Part shown: positions 1-5,396 of the stretch, piece by piece
Position numbering within the stretch: the first letter of the stretch is position 1
Layout of the letters: each line of letters begins with the position of its first letter
DNA from: a virus
Virus record (IMG/VR): IMGVR_UViG_3300045988_015739
Strand: one strand, 5' to 3'
Length of the DNA stretch: 5,396 nt
Position numbers and translations under genes: made by a program
Notes under the pieces: generated by a model
Databases searched by the model: none
What the model was told of the DNA's origin: nothing
What the model saw: only the letters and a program-made list of their open reading frames with translations

Positions 1-55
1 GGGAGCATAACTATCCTTGCTTGTACCTTGGAGGTTATCTATATTATAGCACTTT
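1..55. repeat. Terminal direct repeat, copy 1. It is identical to 5342..5396 and marks the overlap of a circular genome linearised by assembly; the unit length is 5341 nt.
   Basis: Positions 1-55 (gggagcataactatccttgcttgtaccttggaggttatctatattatagcacttt) are identical base-for-base to 5342-5396. VP4 reads continuously through this junction on the minus strand. Confidence 0.95.
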
Positions 56-603
56 GACCACGTTTTTGCAATACTTTTTGATGTAAAAAGTTGAAAATTA
101 CCGCTCTTTTTATAAGGCTCAATATCGAAAATTGGTAGACCAAATAGAATTGCATGGTAATGTGGCCTTAAAGTTTCAGAACCATACTCACCAGCGGCAA
201 AAAAACGAATCTTGTTTTCCGGGAAATGGCGGCGAAGACGTTTCATCCACAGTTGAAAGTCACGCTTCCTCAAGGTCAAGGCCGGAGCCTGCTTACCAGT
301 ATCAGGGTCGGATGACATAACACGAGGAACATACTTGTCATTATATGTGATGGTCGCAAACCACACCTGGTCCGGGGGATAATACTGAGCCTCAAGCATA
401 CAACGATTGGCCCATTGGCGGGAGTAGTCCAGGCGACAGCCTATACACTTGCCGCAAGGGATTTTAACGGCAGGACCTTGCAACGGAGGACGAATCTGCA
501 AATCTTCCCACACAGAGTCCTTAAAAGGTCGGATAACATAGTGGGTTTTTCCGTTAGGATTCACACCATTGGGGATTCCAATGAGAGGGTAATAGCAAGA
601 CAA
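1..603 (-). CDS. VP4: Replication initiation protein VP4, a rolling-circle HUH endonuclease. This is the N-terminal 201 codons. The protein continues across the circular junction into 5341..4856, giving 362 aa in total.
   Basis: Manual minus-strand translation from the TTG start at 603 gives MSCYYPLIGIPNGVNPNGKTHYVIRPF...KIPCGKCIGCRLDYSRQWANRCMLEAQYYPPDQVWFATITYNDKY...FFAAGEYGSETLRPHYHAILFGLPIFDIEPY... A Shine-Dalgarno GGAGA lies 6 nt upstream, inside the end of the preceding small ORF. The sequence contains a CxxCxxC Zn-finger-like N-terminus, RCR motif 1 (FATITY) and motif 2 HUH (HYHAILF), as in the Microviridae VP4 / phiX174 A family. The frame ends at position 1 with codon CCC and continues in frame with 5341. 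Confidence 0.9.
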   Translation of the reverse strand, partial: MSCYYPLIGIPNGVNPNGKTHYVIRPFKDSVWEDLQIRPPLQGPAVKIPCGKCIGCRLDYSRQWANRCMLEAQYYPPDQVWFATITYNDKYVPRVMSSDPDTGKQAPALTLRKRDFQLWMKRLRRHFPENKIRFFAAGEYGSETLRPHYHAILFGLPIFDIEPYKKSGNFQLFTSKSIAKTWSKCYNIDNLQGTSKDSYAP

Positions 604-606
604 GAG

Positions 607-714
607 TTATCTCCTTCCAAAAATATCACGCAGAAAATCAATCGCTTTCCAAAGAACGTTCTTTGTCAACCAGAGCAAACCAAACATGAGGGCAACCACA
701 AGTAGAGATTCCAT
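607..714 (-). CDS. 35-aa hydrophobic or transmembrane peptide (MESLLVVALMFGLLWLTKNVLWKAIDFLRDIFGRR). It is a candidate lysis or membrane-active protein and may also act as a leader peptide coupled to VP4 translation.
   Basis: The ATG at 714 is preceded by a consensus Shine-Dalgarno, AGGAGGTGAGAAT-ATG. A near-consensus sigma70 promoter lies about 20 nt upstream. The N-terminal 15 residues are uniformly hydrophobic (one TM helix) and are followed by a basic amphipathic tail. The TAA stop at 607-609 is 3 nt before the VP4 TTG start, and the last codons of this ORF (GGA AGG AGA) form the VP4 Shine-Dalgarno. The longer 88-aa version (start 873) in the ORF track lacks a Shine-Dalgarno and would overlap the VP2 3' end and the promoter. 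Confidence 0.55.
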   Translation of the reverse strand: MESLLVVALMFGLLWLTKNVLWKAIDFLRDIFGRR

Positions 715-736
715 ATTCTCACCTCCTCTCAGGTCC

Positions 737-765
737 ATTATACCATACTCTAGGTATGGTGTCAC
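737..765 (-). promoter_or_regulatory. Sigma70-type promoter with extended -10. The -35 GTGACA is at 765..760, the -10 TATAAT is at 742..737, and a TGG sits immediately upstream of the -10. It drives the small-peptide and VP4 transcription unit.
   Basis: Minus-strand sequence cccgaGTGACAccatacctagagtatggTATAATggacctgagaggaggtgagaatATG. The -35 matches 5 of 6 positions, the spacer is 17 nt, the -10 is a perfect TATAAT, and TGn is present upstream. It is correctly placed 14-20 nt upstream of the Shine-Dalgarno and ATG of the 35-aa ORF. Confidence 0.6.
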
Positions 766-799
766 TCGGGCCCTATACATCAAGGAGATAGGGCCCGAG
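765..799. other. Perfect 12-bp GC-rich inverted repeat with an 11-nt loop (CTCGGGCCCTAT-acatcaaggag-ATAGGGCCCGAG) in the VP2-to-VP4 intergenic region. A second 7-bp hairpin (ACCATAC-tctag-GTATGGT, 742..760) is adjacent.
   Basis: Read directly from the sequence. The stem has 12 Watson-Crick pairs with no mismatch. It is not followed by a U-tract on the mRNA strand, so it is not a canonical intrinsic terminator. Candidate roles are a complementary-strand origin hairpin on the ssDNA virion strand, an mRNA 3'-end stabiliser, or an operator. Confidence 0.6.
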
Positions 800-805
800 C
801 GGCTA

Positions 806-1711
806 TCATTTGTACTTCGATAGAACGGCATCCATAGTTTCGTCCCAGCGACCAAAGGAGGAATTCCAAGCACCTTTAGCGCGATCTAAAAGCTTCTTAC
901 CAGAACTAGCTACATCATCAACAACGTCTCCGACATTCTCAGCAATAGCGCCGGGATAATTCCAAACGGAACCAGGGTACATCTTCTTCATATCAAACTC
1001 AGCATCTATACCCATCTGCTTGAGTTCCTTGTTAATCTCACCATTGATACGAGCAACTTCCGTAGAAGTCCAGGACTGGAGCTGATAGCCATACCGCTGA
1101 GCGGCGGCGGCAACCTGAGCATTGATTTTACTGGCCGCAACCTGGGCTTGAGTGTTACTGATGGACGTAGTGGCCTGGAGCTGGGCAATCCAACGACTAG
1201 TAGCGGCGGAGATATTGGCGGTACTGAGCTGAGTCTGGCTATTCAGCTCGGCGGTATATTTAGACATGGCGTTGTACTTCTCAGCGACCGCAAGATTAGT
1301 CTGAGCAGACAAGCGCTGATTCTCCAAGCTCACCTGAGATTGGAGAATGGAACCAAGGATTCCAGCAATGGCGGAGTTAGCAGACGTATCCGTGGACGCA
1401 GTAGCGCCGGAGGTAGTGGCGGCCCCTTGGCCACCGTTTACAGAGAGGACAGGGTTGAGGCCGGCTTTCTTCAAATCAGCAACCTCACGCTGGTGGGCAG
1501 TGCTGGACATACGCTCTTGCCAATCACGGTTAATCTGAGCTTGCTGAGCAGACCAGGCATTGTTTTCGGCGGCGTTCTCTTTGATCATAGCGGCGTACTT
1601 ATCGAACATATCCGACACAGAGGAGCCAGCAGAAGAAGAGCCGCCGGAGCTCCAATTAGGGTTAGAACGACCTCCAATGTCCTGAGAGACTTTTTGAGCG
1701 GAGCTAGGCAT
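806..1711 (-). CDS. VP2: VP2 minor capsid / DNA pilot protein, 301 aa from the ATG at 1711. An in-frame GTG at 1717 gives the 303-aa version shown in the ORF track.
   Basis: Shine-Dalgarno AAGGA lies 9 nt before the ATG at 1711 and only 3 nt before the GTG at 1717. The product has a Ser/Gly-rich N-terminus, a conserved ...REVADLKKAGLNPVLS... motif typical of gokushovirus VP2, and a long Q/A/S/T-rich predicted coiled-coil central region like a pilot protein. It sits immediately downstream of VP1. TGA stop at 806-808. Confidence 0.8.
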   Translation of the reverse strand: MPSSAQKVSQDIGGRSNPNWSSGGSSSAGSSVSDMFDKYAAMIKENAAENNAWSAQQAQINRDWQERMSSTAHQREVADLKKAGLNPVLSVNGGQGAATTSGATASTDTSANSAIAGILGSILQSQVSLENQRLSAQTNLAVAEKYNAMSKYTAELNSQTQLSTANISAATSRWIAQLQATTSISNTQAQVAASKINAQVAAAAQRYGYQLQSWTSTEVARINGEINKELKQMGIDAEFDMKKMYPGSVWNYPGAIAENVGDVVDDVASSGKKLLDRAKGAWNSSFGRWDETMDAVLSKYK

Positions 1712-1729
1712 ATGCACTCATCCTTTCTT

Positions 1730-1770: not shown

Positions 1771-3456
1771 TTAATGGTGGTCAATCAGACCGGGGATAGA
1801 ATACAGCGGCATATTACGAGTAGAATAGTTCTGCACGTAAATATCGCAGAAAAACTGGTTAGCGAGATTGTCAGAAACAGCGAGGACACGGTTGATAGTG
1901 GCGGGGTCCTCGTGAATCCAGGCATCAGACAAAGCGGGCATCTTAGAATAATCATCAGCCAAGTGCCAAACATCCAGGGACTGGGCGTAGCTCGAACGCA
2001 TTTCACCAGAAACTCGGGAAGGCTTATAGCGGTAATCAGCCCAAGCTTCCTGATAGCCAAAAACCTCATCGTCCTGAGCATTGCCTTGAGCGTAAATTTC
2101 CTTATTCAACACAGCTTGCTCACCGATATTGGCGAACTCAGGCCAGTAATAGTCAAACATGGACTTACGGGACCAAAAACGCTCAATGCCCTGCTGATAA
2201 GTATGGTCATAACGAGCAACCATAACGCCAATCACAAAACCATGCTCAACAAAGCTTTTAGTGAAATCAGAGTGAACGTCGGTAGTAAGAGACATAGCAC
2301 CAGTATCACCGAGAGGCGTAGAACCGGAAACGGTCCCGGAATTTTGAATAACCTGATTAATACTGACAGGAATACGATTGCCACCAAGATACTCAGGACG
2401 TTGAAGACGAGCATCCGGGGAAGTAACTCCAAAATGGGCCTTAAGGGTCTCAATGTACCGGGAACCACCTCTAGCGCTCCTTTCATAAAATTTTTGGATC
2501 TGGAATGCAGTACGAAGCTGATTGATAGTAGCAACAGAAACAGTGTTATCAAACTGAGCCCAAAGGTTAGCAGGATAACCGACAACGCCATTATCAATGG
2601 TCGGGTCCAAATCGCTATTACCATCTTTCGCAAGCCAATACGCACCACCGAACGCATTCTGATAAACAGAGCCAGCATGATAGCCAGCACCAAAATTGCT
2701 ATTACCATTAGGGATATAAACATTGTACGGATAATTAAGCAAATCCTTAGGAACAGGCTTATCCATCGGTACAACCGGCGCATTGCCAAGCTGGGCAGTA
2801 TTGATGGTCACATCAGGACCTTTCTGAGGAGAAGGGAGACAGGATGTAAAATAATCCCGGAACTTATTTGCAACAAAAGGCTTACCACCTTTGGCAACGT
2901 CAGAGACATAGTTACCAGTATTCACGCCTTGGACAGTAGCATCATCCACGGGGATATTGAGAGGGTCGGTAAGATTCTCAGAGCGAAACCACTCATTCAT
3001 AATAAGGGCGTAAGCTCGGAAGGGGAGAGCGGAAACAGAGAGGCCTTTCACACCAGTAGGGACACCCATATAGTCAGCCAAAGTGCCGACTTCCCAACCA
3101 TTAGCGGGAGCAGTCAGCTGGGGGACCTCATACTCAACCTGGGGAATCCAAGCAGATTCAGTGTTCTCACCCATAAACTGTTTCCAATGTTCCCATACCA
3201 GGCGGTTTGGAACAAAGAAATAATACGTATCAAGATAGACGTTATCCATGACAGGAGTCAAAAGGGTCTGCATACGGACAACTTTGGAAGTACGAACCTG
3301 AAAAGTATCGCCAGGAAGAACCTCATCAACGTAGAAGGGAATCACCTGGCCAGCATTAAAAGTAGTCTTGTGAGAAAAATTGCGAGGAAACTTGGAACGA
3401 GACATATCCAAACGAACAGGGTTAGTAGCAAAACGAGAGTTAGCGTTTCTACTCAT
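1771..3456 (-). CDS. VP1: VP1 major capsid protein (Microviridae F-like, gokushovirus type), 561 aa.
   Basis: The N-terminus is MSRNANSRFATNPVRLDMSRSKFPRNFSHKTTFNAGQVIPFYVDEVLPGDTFQVRTSKVVRMQTLLTPVMDNVYLDTYYFFVPNRLVWEHW..., which is characteristic of Microviridae VP1. The length is typical of gokushovirus VP1 with its large insertion loop. Shine-Dalgarno GAGG lies 8 nt upstream. The ATG overlaps the VP3 stop (TAATG). TAA stop at 1771-1773. Confidence 0.93.
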   Translation of the reverse strand: MSRNANSRFATNPVRLDMSRSKFPRNFSHKTTFNAGQVIPFYVDEVLPGDTFQVRTSKVVRMQTLLTPVMDNVYLDTYYFFVPNRLVWEHWKQFMGENTESAWIPQVEYEVPQLTAPANGWEVGTLADYMGVPTGVKGLSVSALPFRAYALIMNEWFRSENLTDPLNIPVDDATVQGVNTGNYVSDVAKGGKPFVANKFRDYFTSCLPSPQKGPDVTINTAQLGNAPVVPMDKPVPKDLLNYPYNVYIPNGNSNFGAGYHAGSVYQNAFGGAYWLAKDGNSDLDPTIDNGVVGYPANLWAQFDNTVSVATINQLRTAFQIQKFYERSARGGSRYIETLKAHFGVTSPDARLQRPEYLGGNRIPVSINQVIQNSGTVSGSTPLGDTGAMSLTTDVHSDFTKSFVEHGFVIGVMVARYDHTYQQGIERFWSRKSMFDYYWPEFANIGEQAVLNKEIYAQGNAQDDEVFGYQEAWADYRYKPSRVSGEMRSSYAQSLDVWHLADDYSKMPALSDAWIHEDPATINRVLAVSDNLANQFFCDIYVQNYSTRNMPLYSIPGLIDHH

Positions 3457-4140: not shown

Positions 4141-4386
4141 TCAGCCTACAACATCCTTTCCGTCCTTGATAAGAACAGGCAACTTTTCAGGGGTCAAAAC
4201 GCCTGTATCAGTATCGAAAGAACCAATACGGAAAAGCTGAAAATCAGAGCGATGCGTAAATAACACATCATGCGACTGCTCAATAGCTGACTCAAAATTA
4301 CGCATAGCAACAGCATCATTACTGCTATAGGTAGGAGCCATAAAGTCAGACTTAATATCACGCATAGAGTAGACAAAAACATTCAT
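4141..4386 (-). CDS. Hypothetical 81-aa non-structural protein. It is the type of small conserved microvirus ORF found between VP4 and the structural genes; a VP5/C-like role is possible.
   Basis: Strong Shine-Dalgarno GGAGGT lies 7 nt before the ATG. The start overlaps the stop of the upstream 71-aa ORF (ATGA). The sequence MNVFVYSMRDIKSDFMAPTYSSNDAVAMRNFESAIEQ...FQLFRIGSFDTDTGVL resembles, from my recollection, small conserved proteins of gokushovirus-like genomes. This is not verified. Confidence 0.6.
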   Translation of the reverse strand: MNVFVYSMRDIKSDFMAPTYSSNDAVAMRNFESAIEQSHDVLFTHRSDFQLFRIGSFDTDTGVLTPEKLPVLIKDGKDVVG

Positions 4387-4855: not shown

Positions 4856-5341
4856 TCAAACTGAAGACCTCCTTAACATCTTAGCAACTGCTTCTTTCTG
4901 ACGGGCTTCTACTTCCAAACGATTTTTTGTGCCATACGTTGTCTTTGTGTCCTTCTCCTTGTCCAGCTCAGTTACAATCTTCTGACGAATCTCCTTCATG
5001 CGCGCCAGCGCCTCGGGATCTTCTTTTTCGAGGAGTCGGTCAAAGTATCGAGGGACTGTAAACTTAATGCCTCCTTCCTGGCCTGGGATATTGATATAGC
5101 GATAATCGTAGACCTCCGGATGGTCCTGGTAGTATCGGCCAGCTATACCAGGTTTACGGGACATGAGGGTAAACGGAGCTTCGAGTCCAAACGACTCGAA
5201 AAACTGAGGGAAGAAGGTATTGGATTTCTTGGCAGTGTAGCGGGCAGTATAGGCGCAGGTTTCCCAACTGCAAGGGGATAATACAATTCTTCCATACGGC
5301 TCATAGATAACTCCGTTCTCCTCGAAGCTTTCTTCTGCAAG
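4856..5341 (-). CDS. VP4: Replication initiation protein VP4, C-terminal 161 codons plus TGA stop. This is contiguous with 603..1 across the circular junction.
   Basis: The frame read in from position 1 continues ...DSYAP|LAEESFEENGVIYEPYGRIVLSPCSWETCAYTARYTAKKSNTFFPQFFESFGLEAPFTLMSRKPGIAGRYYQDHPEVYDY...KMLRRSSV*. It contains RCR motif 3 with a paired Tyr (AYTARYTAKK), like phiX174 YVAKYVNKK. The supplied 102-aa ORF 4856..5164 is the tail of this same frame. The supplied 68-aa ORF 5143..5349 is a different frame and was rejected. Confidence 0.9.
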   Translation of the reverse strand, partial: LAEESFEENGVIYEPYGRIVLSPCSWETCAYTARYTAKKSNTFFPQFFESFGLEAPFTLMSRKPGIAGRYYQDHPEVYDYRYINIPGQEGGIKFTVPRYFDRLLEKEDPEALARMKEIRQKIVTELDKEKDTKTTYGTKNRLEVEARQKEAVAKMLRRSSV

Positions 5342-5396
5342 GGGAGCATAACTATCCTTGCTTGTACCTTGGAGGTTATCTATATTATAGCACTTT
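5342..5396. repeat. Terminal direct repeat, copy 2. This is the redundant end of the circular genome.
   Basis: Exact 55-nt match to positions 1-55. Confidence 0.95.

Follow-up and report, generated by a model that had tools for sequence, protein, structure and literature searches.

The viral record IMGVR_UViG_3300045988_015739 (the window: the whole analysed stretch of 5396 nucleotides, nt) consists of a 5341-nt circular gokushovirus genome plus a 55-nt terminal redundancy, and all of its genes lie on the minus strand. Directly upstream of the gene for the replication protein VP4 (Rep) lies a 108-nt open reading frame (ORF), which codes for a hydrophobic, single-helix peptide of 35 residues and is the subject of this work. 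The elements around this ORF are arranged as follows, in window coordinates.

763..801, minus strand: conserved stem-loop with a GC-rich stem of 12-14 bp, the loop CTCCTTGATGT and then TGACACC; it supplies the -35 element of the next site.
765..737, minus strand: sigma-70/sigma-A-type promoter-like site with -35 GTGACA (765-760), a 17-nt spacer and the TG-extended -10 TGgTATAAT (745-737).
742..760, minus strand: 7-bp hairpin in the promoter spacer, with compensatory changes among relatives.
719..727, minus strand: Shine-Dalgarno sequence AGGAGGTGA (AGGAGG at 727-722), 7 nt before the ATG of the peptide.
714..607, minus strand: peptide ORF (hereafter type A), 35 codons plus a TAA stop, defined by translation, conservation, the ratio of nonsynonymous to synonymous polymorphism (pN/pS) and a predicted helix.
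610..618, minus strand: Shine-Dalgarno sequence of VP4, GGAAGGAGA, made up of the peptide's last three sense codons, GGA AGG AGA.
1..603, minus strand: N-terminal part of VP4 (Pfam REP_ORF2-G2P), which starts at TTG (603-601) and crosses the circular junction.

Minus-strand positions 714..610 translate to MESLLVVALMFGLLWLTKNVLWKAIDFLRDIFGRR, beginning with ATG and ending before the TAA stop at 609-607. Hydropathy, by which the membrane character of all peptides was judged, gives 15 unbroken apolar residues (3-17) bordered by E2 and K18, which is short for a membrane span. The C-terminal flank (residues 18-35) carries a net charge of +3 and has a hydrophobic moment of 0.63 over residues 19-32. 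A preliminary description of the locus had proposed a hydrophobic N-terminus followed by a cationic amphipathic tail, and these values bear it out. The AlphaFold model, made from the single sequence, is one continuous helix spanning residues 2-33 (pLDDT, the model's own confidence score, 93.6). We infer that the peptide would insert in the cytoplasmic membrane, and the positive-inside rule suggests a topology with the N-terminus outside and the amphipathic +3 tail in the cytoplasm. AGGAGG occurs only three times on the coding strand, and the copy in front of the peptide gives the longest match to the anti-Shine-Dalgarno sequence before any gene start, in agreement with its earlier ranking as the best in the genome. 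Hydrophobicity alone is weak evidence for a gene, because 5 of the 33 small ORFs (15%) on this T-rich coding strand are equally hydrophobic.

To judge constraint, the slot upstream of VP4 was compared in 25 genomes with VP4 N-termini at least 90% identical. A hydrophobic ORF of 35 amino acids (aa) fills the slot in 24 of these 25 clade members: 13 carry type A, 11 carry a second sequence, type B (MKLWKLLVLVFFAWFLFGNGWAMILGFIAVLLGGA), and one carries none. Types A and B show no similarity to each other, with scores as high reached by 100 of 500 shuffles for the DNA and by 852 of 1000 for the protein. Across the 12 other type A loci, frame, length, start and Shine-Dalgarno sequence are kept at identities of 51-100%, with M1, S3, L4, M10, L14-W15-L16, I25, D26, L28-R29-D30 and R34-R35 invariant. 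Length, ATG and Shine-Dalgarno sequence never vary within type A or within type B, and (A)AGGAGGT is kept in all loci of both. Pooled over close variants, pN/pS is 0.16 (A) and 0.13 (B) in frame, compared with 1.0-1.6 in the two other frames. Variable columns fall at the third codon position in 8 of 11 cases for A (P = 0.009) and 15 of 20 for B (P = 0.0002). Since Rep of the same type A genomes has a pN/pS of 0.09, the type A peptide, at 0.16, is constrained in sequence almost as strongly as an essential enzyme. We therefore consider it highly probable that the ORF is a real membrane-peptide gene. Conservation of position and composition among relatives, on which the preliminary description had made its proposal depend, is present.

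Neither type A nor type B matches a curated family in Pfam, PHROGs, NCBIfam or PADLOC. Scanning the peptide against Pfam and PHROGs gave only a sub-threshold match to DUF2628 at E <= 0.1, and no homology to phiX174 E was found by Pfam and PHROGs, as had been anticipated. Among 50,697 phage records searched by tblastn, type A occurs solely in MG945855 and type B solely in KT264754. A search of 5.8 billion proteins, for which the query was padded with 5 in-frame upstream residues, returned two clusters, both of them the same peptide. The nearest annotated relative of the phage is Gokushovirus WZ-2015a (KT264754, L001; 88% identity), followed by MG945855 (L002) and MG945869 (L003) at about 80%, and the peptide ORF is unannotated in all three records. 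The earlier expectation of a new dedicated membrane-peptide gene is thus upheld, the gene being previously unannotated and without a family in the four collections. What is new is the peptide families, while small phage membrane peptides are already known as a kind of element. The same three records annotate VP4 from an internal ATG (885 nt; L001 2871-3956). The true start is a TTG or ATG located 68 codons further upstream, as indicated by tblastn and by the conserved N-terminus MSCYYPLIG..., and VP4 of the window is 92% identical to that of KT264754 along its full 362 aa (tblastn).

The slot is occupied by other hydrophobic sequences as well. Charges are C-terminal in type A and N-terminal in type B, which gives the two different predicted topologies. 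Type C, MKWTERLAKLIFFVIVLQIALLLLNMCVGGFR, is an unrelated transmembrane (TM) peptide in a prophage of Muriventricola aceti (L020, VP4 50% identical) and ends exactly at the VP4 ATG. Type E, (M)DIEGITLVATALITFIQVVASAAKKLKETIKAVKTK, is a 37-aa ORF with a TTG start, located between VP8 and VP4 of a distant gokushovirus (L091, 1335-1448), and shares the type A architecture of an apolar N-terminus and a basic tail. Types A, B and C adjoin the VP4 start, whereas type E is parted from VP4 by a GC-rich hairpin and VP4's own Shine-Dalgarno sequence. Four unrelated hydrophobic sequences in this position, against a 15% background among small ORFs, are unlikely to be accidental, because only 5 of 33 small ORFs match the hydrophobicity of type A.

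Across gokushoviruses the slot is not always hydrophobic. The complete genome L003 has no peptide, and its promoter and Shine-Dalgarno sequence run straight into the VP4 TTG. There is no universal free-standing TM ORF among relatives, with none in L003 or in L013-L015. Three genomes (L018, L081 and L087) have no ORF upstream of VP4, and in distant gokushoviruses the basic protein VP8 abuts VP4. A sister clade carries a conserved soluble ORF of 57-59 aa, e.g. MLFRDLVVCNKDW...RQVLWFRDCVVMLL, with a stop that overlaps the VP4 start (ATGA or GTGA). It was found in L013-L015, L021, L080, L082-L086, L088 and L089, and it has no database match.

The promoter-like site upstream of the peptide scores 11/12 plus TG and is the best of the 11 matches in the window, so that the near-consensus promoter with an extended -10 proposed earlier is recovered; as a count, the total of 11 is not significant against shuffled sequences (7.0 +/- 2.8). 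Its -10 (TGnTATAAT) is present in all 25 clade members, including the peptide-less L003. The -35 hexamer overlaps TGACACC, the motif beside the stem-loop that gokushoviruses have in common. Most gokushoviruses with this motif, and L020 too, have no -10 after it, which points to a dedicated peptide promoter specific to this clade. The hairpin in the spacer occurs in the variants CCATAC/GTATGG, CCACGT/ACGTGG and CCACAC/GTGTGG. A second promoter-like site lies inside VP4, upstream of the attachment-site core described below (43-71, minus strand; TTGCAA-17-TATAAT plus TG, 10/12). In lysogens it would read across the right attachment site toward the host gene for an SLH-domain protein, and in the free genome it would transcribe the C-terminal part of Rep.

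The stem-loop itself folds as DNA with z = -5.6. Its loop (CTTGAYGT) and 3' flank (TGACACC) are conserved with covarying stems in about 45 gokushovirus loci (e.g. L022-L066 and L081-L091), on contigs assigned to many bacterial phyla. In 21 representatives the perfect stems measure 8-15 bp and comprise 21 different arms, whereas shuffled controls average 4.1 bp and reach 9 at most. The structure, which we take to resemble the origin nick region of phiX174, is a candidate Rep nick site or origin. Our literature search found no paper joining Gokushovirinae, stem-loop and origin of replication.

The phage is temperate, its relatives are integrated in gut Oscillospiraceae, and the peptide is the first cistron of the Rep unit. 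A 46-kb contig found by the protein search (L016) contains the entire phage genome at 5377-10735, collinear with the window and 98.5% identical to it, between an aromatic amino-acid (aro) operon and the SLH-domain gene. The features that bear on integration are the following.

603 across the circular junction to 4856, minus strand: VP4 (Rep), 362 aa.
4856..5341, minus strand: C-terminal part of VP4 with the ARYTAKK tyrosine motif, apart from the N-terminal part in prophages.
20..4, minus strand: attachment-site core GCAAGGnnnGTTATGCT inside VP4, read from the L016 junctions, with a second copy at 5345-5361 in the terminal redundancy.

The junctions in L016 read ...GCAAGGGGCGTTATGCT joined to CCCCTTGCAG at attL and ...GCAAGGATAGTTATGCT joined to TTCCTATGACC at attR. 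Integration splits Rep at about residue 200. More specifically, the prophage starts with the C-terminal part of Rep and ends with the promoter, the peptide and Rep residues 1-199 plus two extra codons (202 aa), so that promoter, Shine-Dalgarno sequence and peptide are intact at its right end. At least 15 contigs, with either type A or type B, share this right junction and the host gene downstream of it. The intact promoter (recognised by its sequence only), Shine-Dalgarno sequence and ORF are retained in L016 and in at least 15 prophage contigs, and type A is found in free virome genomes as well as in prophages. The HUH motif remains in the N-terminal Rep fragment and the ARYTAKK tyrosine motif lies at the opposite end of the prophage. 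With its two motifs parted in this way, Rep should be inactive until excision.

The phage has no integrase gene, and there is no tRNA gene at the integration junction. Between attR and conserved host sequence lie 70-90 nt that exist as three unrelated variants (L005-L011 and L069-L079). One variant contains, some 30 nt rightward of attR, an exact XerD-arm-like TTATGTTAAAT; nothing else at the junction suggests a canonical dif site, which was considered and found unconvincing. The core lies in the stretch of Rep between the HUH and tyrosine motifs (VP4 residues ~183-225; window 1-130 and 5200-5341). This stretch is about 27 residues longer than in the Reps of Oscillibacter PC13 and the sister clade, and it is variable among close relatives. 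From such comparisons, the linker looks as if it had been expanded to house attP.

Long contigs that carry relatives belong to Oscillibacter sp. PC13 and Muriventricola aceti (isolate genomes) and to other Clostridia. The flanking chorismate synthase has its closest named protein in Pseudoflavonifractor phocaeensis (73-74% identity), and these two observations together indicate an uncultured, monoderm Oscillospiraceae host. The bacterial flanks have 58-66% GC (L016 1-5179 and 10858-11178; L006 3723-6575; L018; L020) and, together with the SLH-domain surface-protein gene beside attR, count as further evidence for this host. E. coli, proposed earlier as the host for an expression assay, is consequently the wrong type of host. 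Two entries, L017 and L019, stand apart: a 784-nt Acinetobacter lwoffii scaffold is a 94%-identical phage fragment and probably reflects contamination, and a contig binned as Collinsella (UMGS1339) carries an attR flank of the Oscillospiraceae type and is probably mis-binned. Microviruses in Gram-positive hosts were first reported only in 2022 (PMC9239249).

The difference between types A and B extends beyond the peptide and into the neighbouring gene for the DNA pilot protein VP2, which lies as follows.

1717..806, minus strand: VP2 (DNA pilot protein), PHROG pilot-protein families.
806..1070, minus strand: C-terminal ~85 codons of VP2, swapped together with the peptide as one module (about window 570-1070).

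The genome L069, with a type B peptide, is 98-100% identical to the window over VP2 codons 1 to ~220 and over Rep, but only 41-49% identical over the ~500 nt that comprise the final ~85 codons of VP2 together with the intergenic region and the peptide. In L073 the pattern is the opposite one. Types A and B share one attB and occur in every group of host-flank identity (~98%, 92% and 82%), and both were found in a single metagenome (3300045988), so the difference between them does not track host lineage. Their behaviour is that of two alleles that circulate side by side within one population of hosts. Near-identical phages integrating at the same host site exchange them, along with the VP2 C-terminus, as a module of ~500 nt. 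In enterogokushoviruses this C-terminus is already known to be hypervariable (PMC7062461).

Taken together, the facts fit a membrane factor in competition between phages somewhat better than a lysis protein. Our preferred interpretation, to which we assign a probability of roughly 0.35, is that the peptide acts as an exclusion factor, or as another early or prophage-expressed membrane factor in such competition. The sigma-A-type promoter would drive its synthesis early in infection and, in the prophage, constitutively. The peptide may then determine superinfection exclusion or an 'exclusion type', paired with the C-terminus of the pilot protein linked to it, and would not be the trigger of host lysis. 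Three lines of evidence speak for this: the strong promoter and the peptide are kept at the prophage end while Rep is split, the peptide is swapped in allele-like fashion with the DNA-pilot C-terminus between near-identical phages, and the early expression signals are strong (the best promoter-like site and the best Shine-Dalgarno sequence in the genome). Furthermore, carriage of gokushovirus DNA confers superinfection immunity by a mechanism without an assigned gene (PMC7062461).

Several points weigh against an exclusion factor. The promoter may not be active in lysogens, and the differing topologies of A and B would be awkward if both recognised the same kind of partner. Fifteen apolar residues would make a short transmembrane span, and the peptide resembles no known exclusion protein. 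Because the VP2 C-terminus is hypervariable, the peptide may merely hitch-hike with it. Finally, the genome has no other recognisable lysis gene, so that lysis is the obvious vacancy.

T4 Imm and HK97 gp15, products of temperate or early-expressed genes of phages, are small membrane proteins that exclude superinfecting phages. With this type the peptide has in common a small membrane-anchored product, strong constitutive or early signals, retention in the prophage, variability between close relatives and linkage to a DNA-delivery protein. No sequence or structural relationship is known, and Microviridae offer no known precedent.

A further extension, which we regard as unlikely, is an 'exclusion type' module composed of the peptide and the VP2 C-terminus linked to it, which would be a functional analogue of heteroimmunity for single-stranded DNA (ssDNA) temperate phages that lack a repressor. 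On the arrangement described above, lysogeny would be enforced by splitting Rep at attP in the clade-specific Rep linker, a constitutive 35-aa membrane peptide would block DNA delivery by phages with the matching pilot-protein C-terminus, and an A-to-B module swap would let a phage escape resident prophages. In lambdoid phages, the cassettes of immunity-region swaps (imm434, imm21) encode a repressor and its operators. The present system resembles these swaps in that temperate phages which are otherwise nearly the same, and which circulate together in one host population, differ in a single exchanged cassette. It differs in that the cassette comprises a pilot-protein C-terminus and a 35-aa membrane peptide, with no repressor present.

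The strongest competitor, doubtful as we judge it, is that the peptide is a lysis effector, either a single-gene lysis protein (Sgl) or a holin-like protein. It would build up with the copy number of the replicative form and damage or depolarise the membrane, or block the supply of cell-wall precursors; host autolysins would complete lysis, and the dosage of a single-copy prophage would stay below the threshold. Among the remaining genes of the window, VP1 lies at 3456..1771 on the minus strand (Pfam Phage_F, E = 7e-165), and four small ORFs, VP5 and VP3 follow VP4. No ORF of the genome contains a muralytic, endolysin or peptidase domain (Pfam, PHROGs), and gokushoviruses have no known lysis gene (PMC7062461). 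VP5 is overprinted in its +1 frame by a very hydrophobic 62-aa ORF (window 4382..4194, minus strand), which the closest relatives keep open. It was considered as a rival, E-like lysis gene and rejected, since the L002 and L003 versions lack a start codon and run into a stop after 9 codons; sequence composition probably accounts for it.

As an Sgl candidate the peptide qualifies by length, start and Shine-Dalgarno sequence, and its apolar stretch may count as the predicted TM domain. The definition of Chamakura et al. 2020 asks for at least 25 codons with an ATG, GTG or TTG start, a valid Shine-Dalgarno sequence as well as a hydrophobic segment, and the ORF has 35 codons, an ATG, the sequence AGGAGGTGA 7 nt upstream and the apolar stretch, short as it is for a span. 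The genome lacks a peptidase, an endolysin and an E homologue, and a slot peptide is kept in 24 of the 25 clade members. The turnover of Sgls in single-stranded RNA (ssRNA) phages is also mirrored here, where near-identical genomes carry unrelated TM peptides that change along with a host-entry protein. Holins are small proteins with one or more TM domains and a highly charged C-terminal domain, a description that types A and E may fit (C-terminal flank net +3 to +5).

Against lysis, the peptide has the strongest promoter and ribosome-binding site and is the first cistron of an early unit, and so would be made first and most abundantly. It is intact behind its promoter in many stable prophages, where a potent lysis protein would be hard to tolerate. 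L003 lacks the peptide altogether, and the sister-clade members L013-L015 have no free-standing TM ORF. Types A and B occur in the same host backgrounds, with no sign that a host shift drives the replacement. The base rate is low: when Sgl candidates were expressed in E. coli, inhibition was seen with about 22 of the 158 that qualified, and overt lysis with no more than 7 of 293 tested (PMC7693330). Type B ends in LLGGA without charge, unlike the C-terminal domain typical of holins, and no endolysin is linked to the peptide in the manner of holins, given that the genome ORFs contain no muralytic or peptidase domain. Of the earlier proposal of a lysis or membrane-active protein, the conserved membrane-peptide gene stands, while lysis is not favoured by the prophage context, by L003 or by the exchange of the module.

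Two known systems help to place the lysis proposal. The phiX174 protein E is an MraY inhibitor of 91 aa, overprinted inside gene D, in a phage of a Gram-negative host. Like the peptide, it is a small protein with an N-terminal hydrophobic helix in a microvirus without a holin-endolysin pair. In contrast, the peptide is free-standing, 35 aa long and encoded upstream of Rep by a temperate phage whose host is monoderm, and a Pfam scan shows no sequence similarity. Closer in size is LysM (Sgl-M) of levivirus M, a MurJ inhibitor of 37 aa (PMC12506998). This protein and the de novo Sgls of ssRNA phages (PMC7693330) share with the peptide their size and single hydrophobic helix, and in ssRNA phages, too, unrelated TM peptides occur in close genomes with a turnover tied to variation of the host-entry protein. 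The ssRNA-phage Sgls differ by their Gram-negative hosts, their usually embedded and varied genome positions and their demonstrated lytic phenotype, whereas the alleles described here sit in one fixed slot, are swapped by recombination and are known from sequence alone.

A distinctly improbable alternative is that the ORF acts as a regulatory leader: ribosomes terminating on it, 0-4 nt away from the VP4 start, would re-initiate at VP4 and set a low, fixed level of Rep. The hydrophobic segment may in addition anchor the mRNA under translation at the membrane, which would then be the place where the cis-acting Rep is made. The preliminary description had noted that the stop lies 3 nt from the VP4 TTG (603-601) and that the last codons form the VP4 Shine-Dalgarno sequence, and both statements are correct. 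The stop-to-start distance is -4 to +4 nt across all peptide types, and the Shine-Dalgarno sequence of VP4 lies in the last codons of type B (GGAGGTGCATGA) and type C (GGAGGGTTTCGTTAA) as well. This close spacing favours a leader, as do the start codon of VP4, which is TTG here and ATG in about half of the close relatives, as if its strength mattered little, and VP8, which likewise abuts VP4 in distant gokushoviruses.

The amino-acid sequence of the peptide is constrained (pN/pS 0.13-0.16) nearly like that of Rep, and a pure leader would need no such constraint. No mRNA structure that would mask the VP4 ribosome-binding site was seen in the leader, with stabilities against shuffles of z = +0.6 and +1.15. 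In L003, VP4 lies directly behind the promoter and uses the region that serves as the peptide's Shine-Dalgarno sequence in L002, and L018, L081 and L087 have no upstream ORF at all. Membrane-inserting regulatory leader peptides are exemplified by MifM and SecM, with which the peptide shares a hydrophobic N-terminus, a constrained C-terminal segment and a position upstream of a cistron whose Shine-Dalgarno sequence lies at the 3' end of the leader. It differs from them in the lack of a structure masking the ribosome-binding site and of a known arrest motif, and in that unrelated sequences substitute for one another.

VP4 would be translated from its own Shine-Dalgarno sequence, located in the last codons of the peptide. 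Physical coupling of the two cistrons is plausible as a mechanical result of their spacing and would not be required. The earlier suggestion that the peptide gates Rep translation finds no support, given the lack of a structured leader, VP4's own Shine-Dalgarno sequence, the ATG in half of the relatives and L003 without the ORF. A peptide-VP4 fusion by read-through or frameshift was also rejected; the two are in frame here, but the gap varies between 0 and 4 nt among relatives.

That the peptide stabilises the prophage or an episome by addiction, or in the manner of a type I toxin, is very unlikely. Its size and composition resemble those of type I toxins, and it sits in a prophage with constitutive signals. 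However, the opposite strand has no promoter-like site near 600-730, the locus has no Rfam antitoxin or other Rfam family, the ORF is co-oriented with and abuts an essential phage gene, and it is also found in free virome genomes. A chance ORF without protein function, for which the frequency of hydrophobic small ORFs on the T-rich strand (5/33) might speak, is effectively refuted by the frame-specific pN/pS, which reveals purifying selection in two independent allele families, and by the conservation of start, Shine-Dalgarno sequence and length in 24 of 25 genomes. The probability that remains beyond these functions belongs to something else.

Gokushoviruses are among the most abundant phages of mammalian guts, and the lineage described here infects monoderm Clostridia, where microviruses are barely documented. 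Two gokushovirus phenotypes, host lysis and the superinfection immunity of carriers, have no known gene (PMC7062461), and the locus is a concrete candidate for one of these two functions. Both questions are directly testable, as two alleles in near-identical backbones and the deletion variant L003 provide natural controls. Because the ORF of 108 nt falls below the 110-bp gene-calling cut-off used in PMC7062461 and is unannotated in its GenBank relatives, similar genes may be systematically missed. If the peptide and the pilot-protein C-terminus do form an exclusion-type module, ssDNA temperate phages without a repressor would have a system resembling heteroimmunity.

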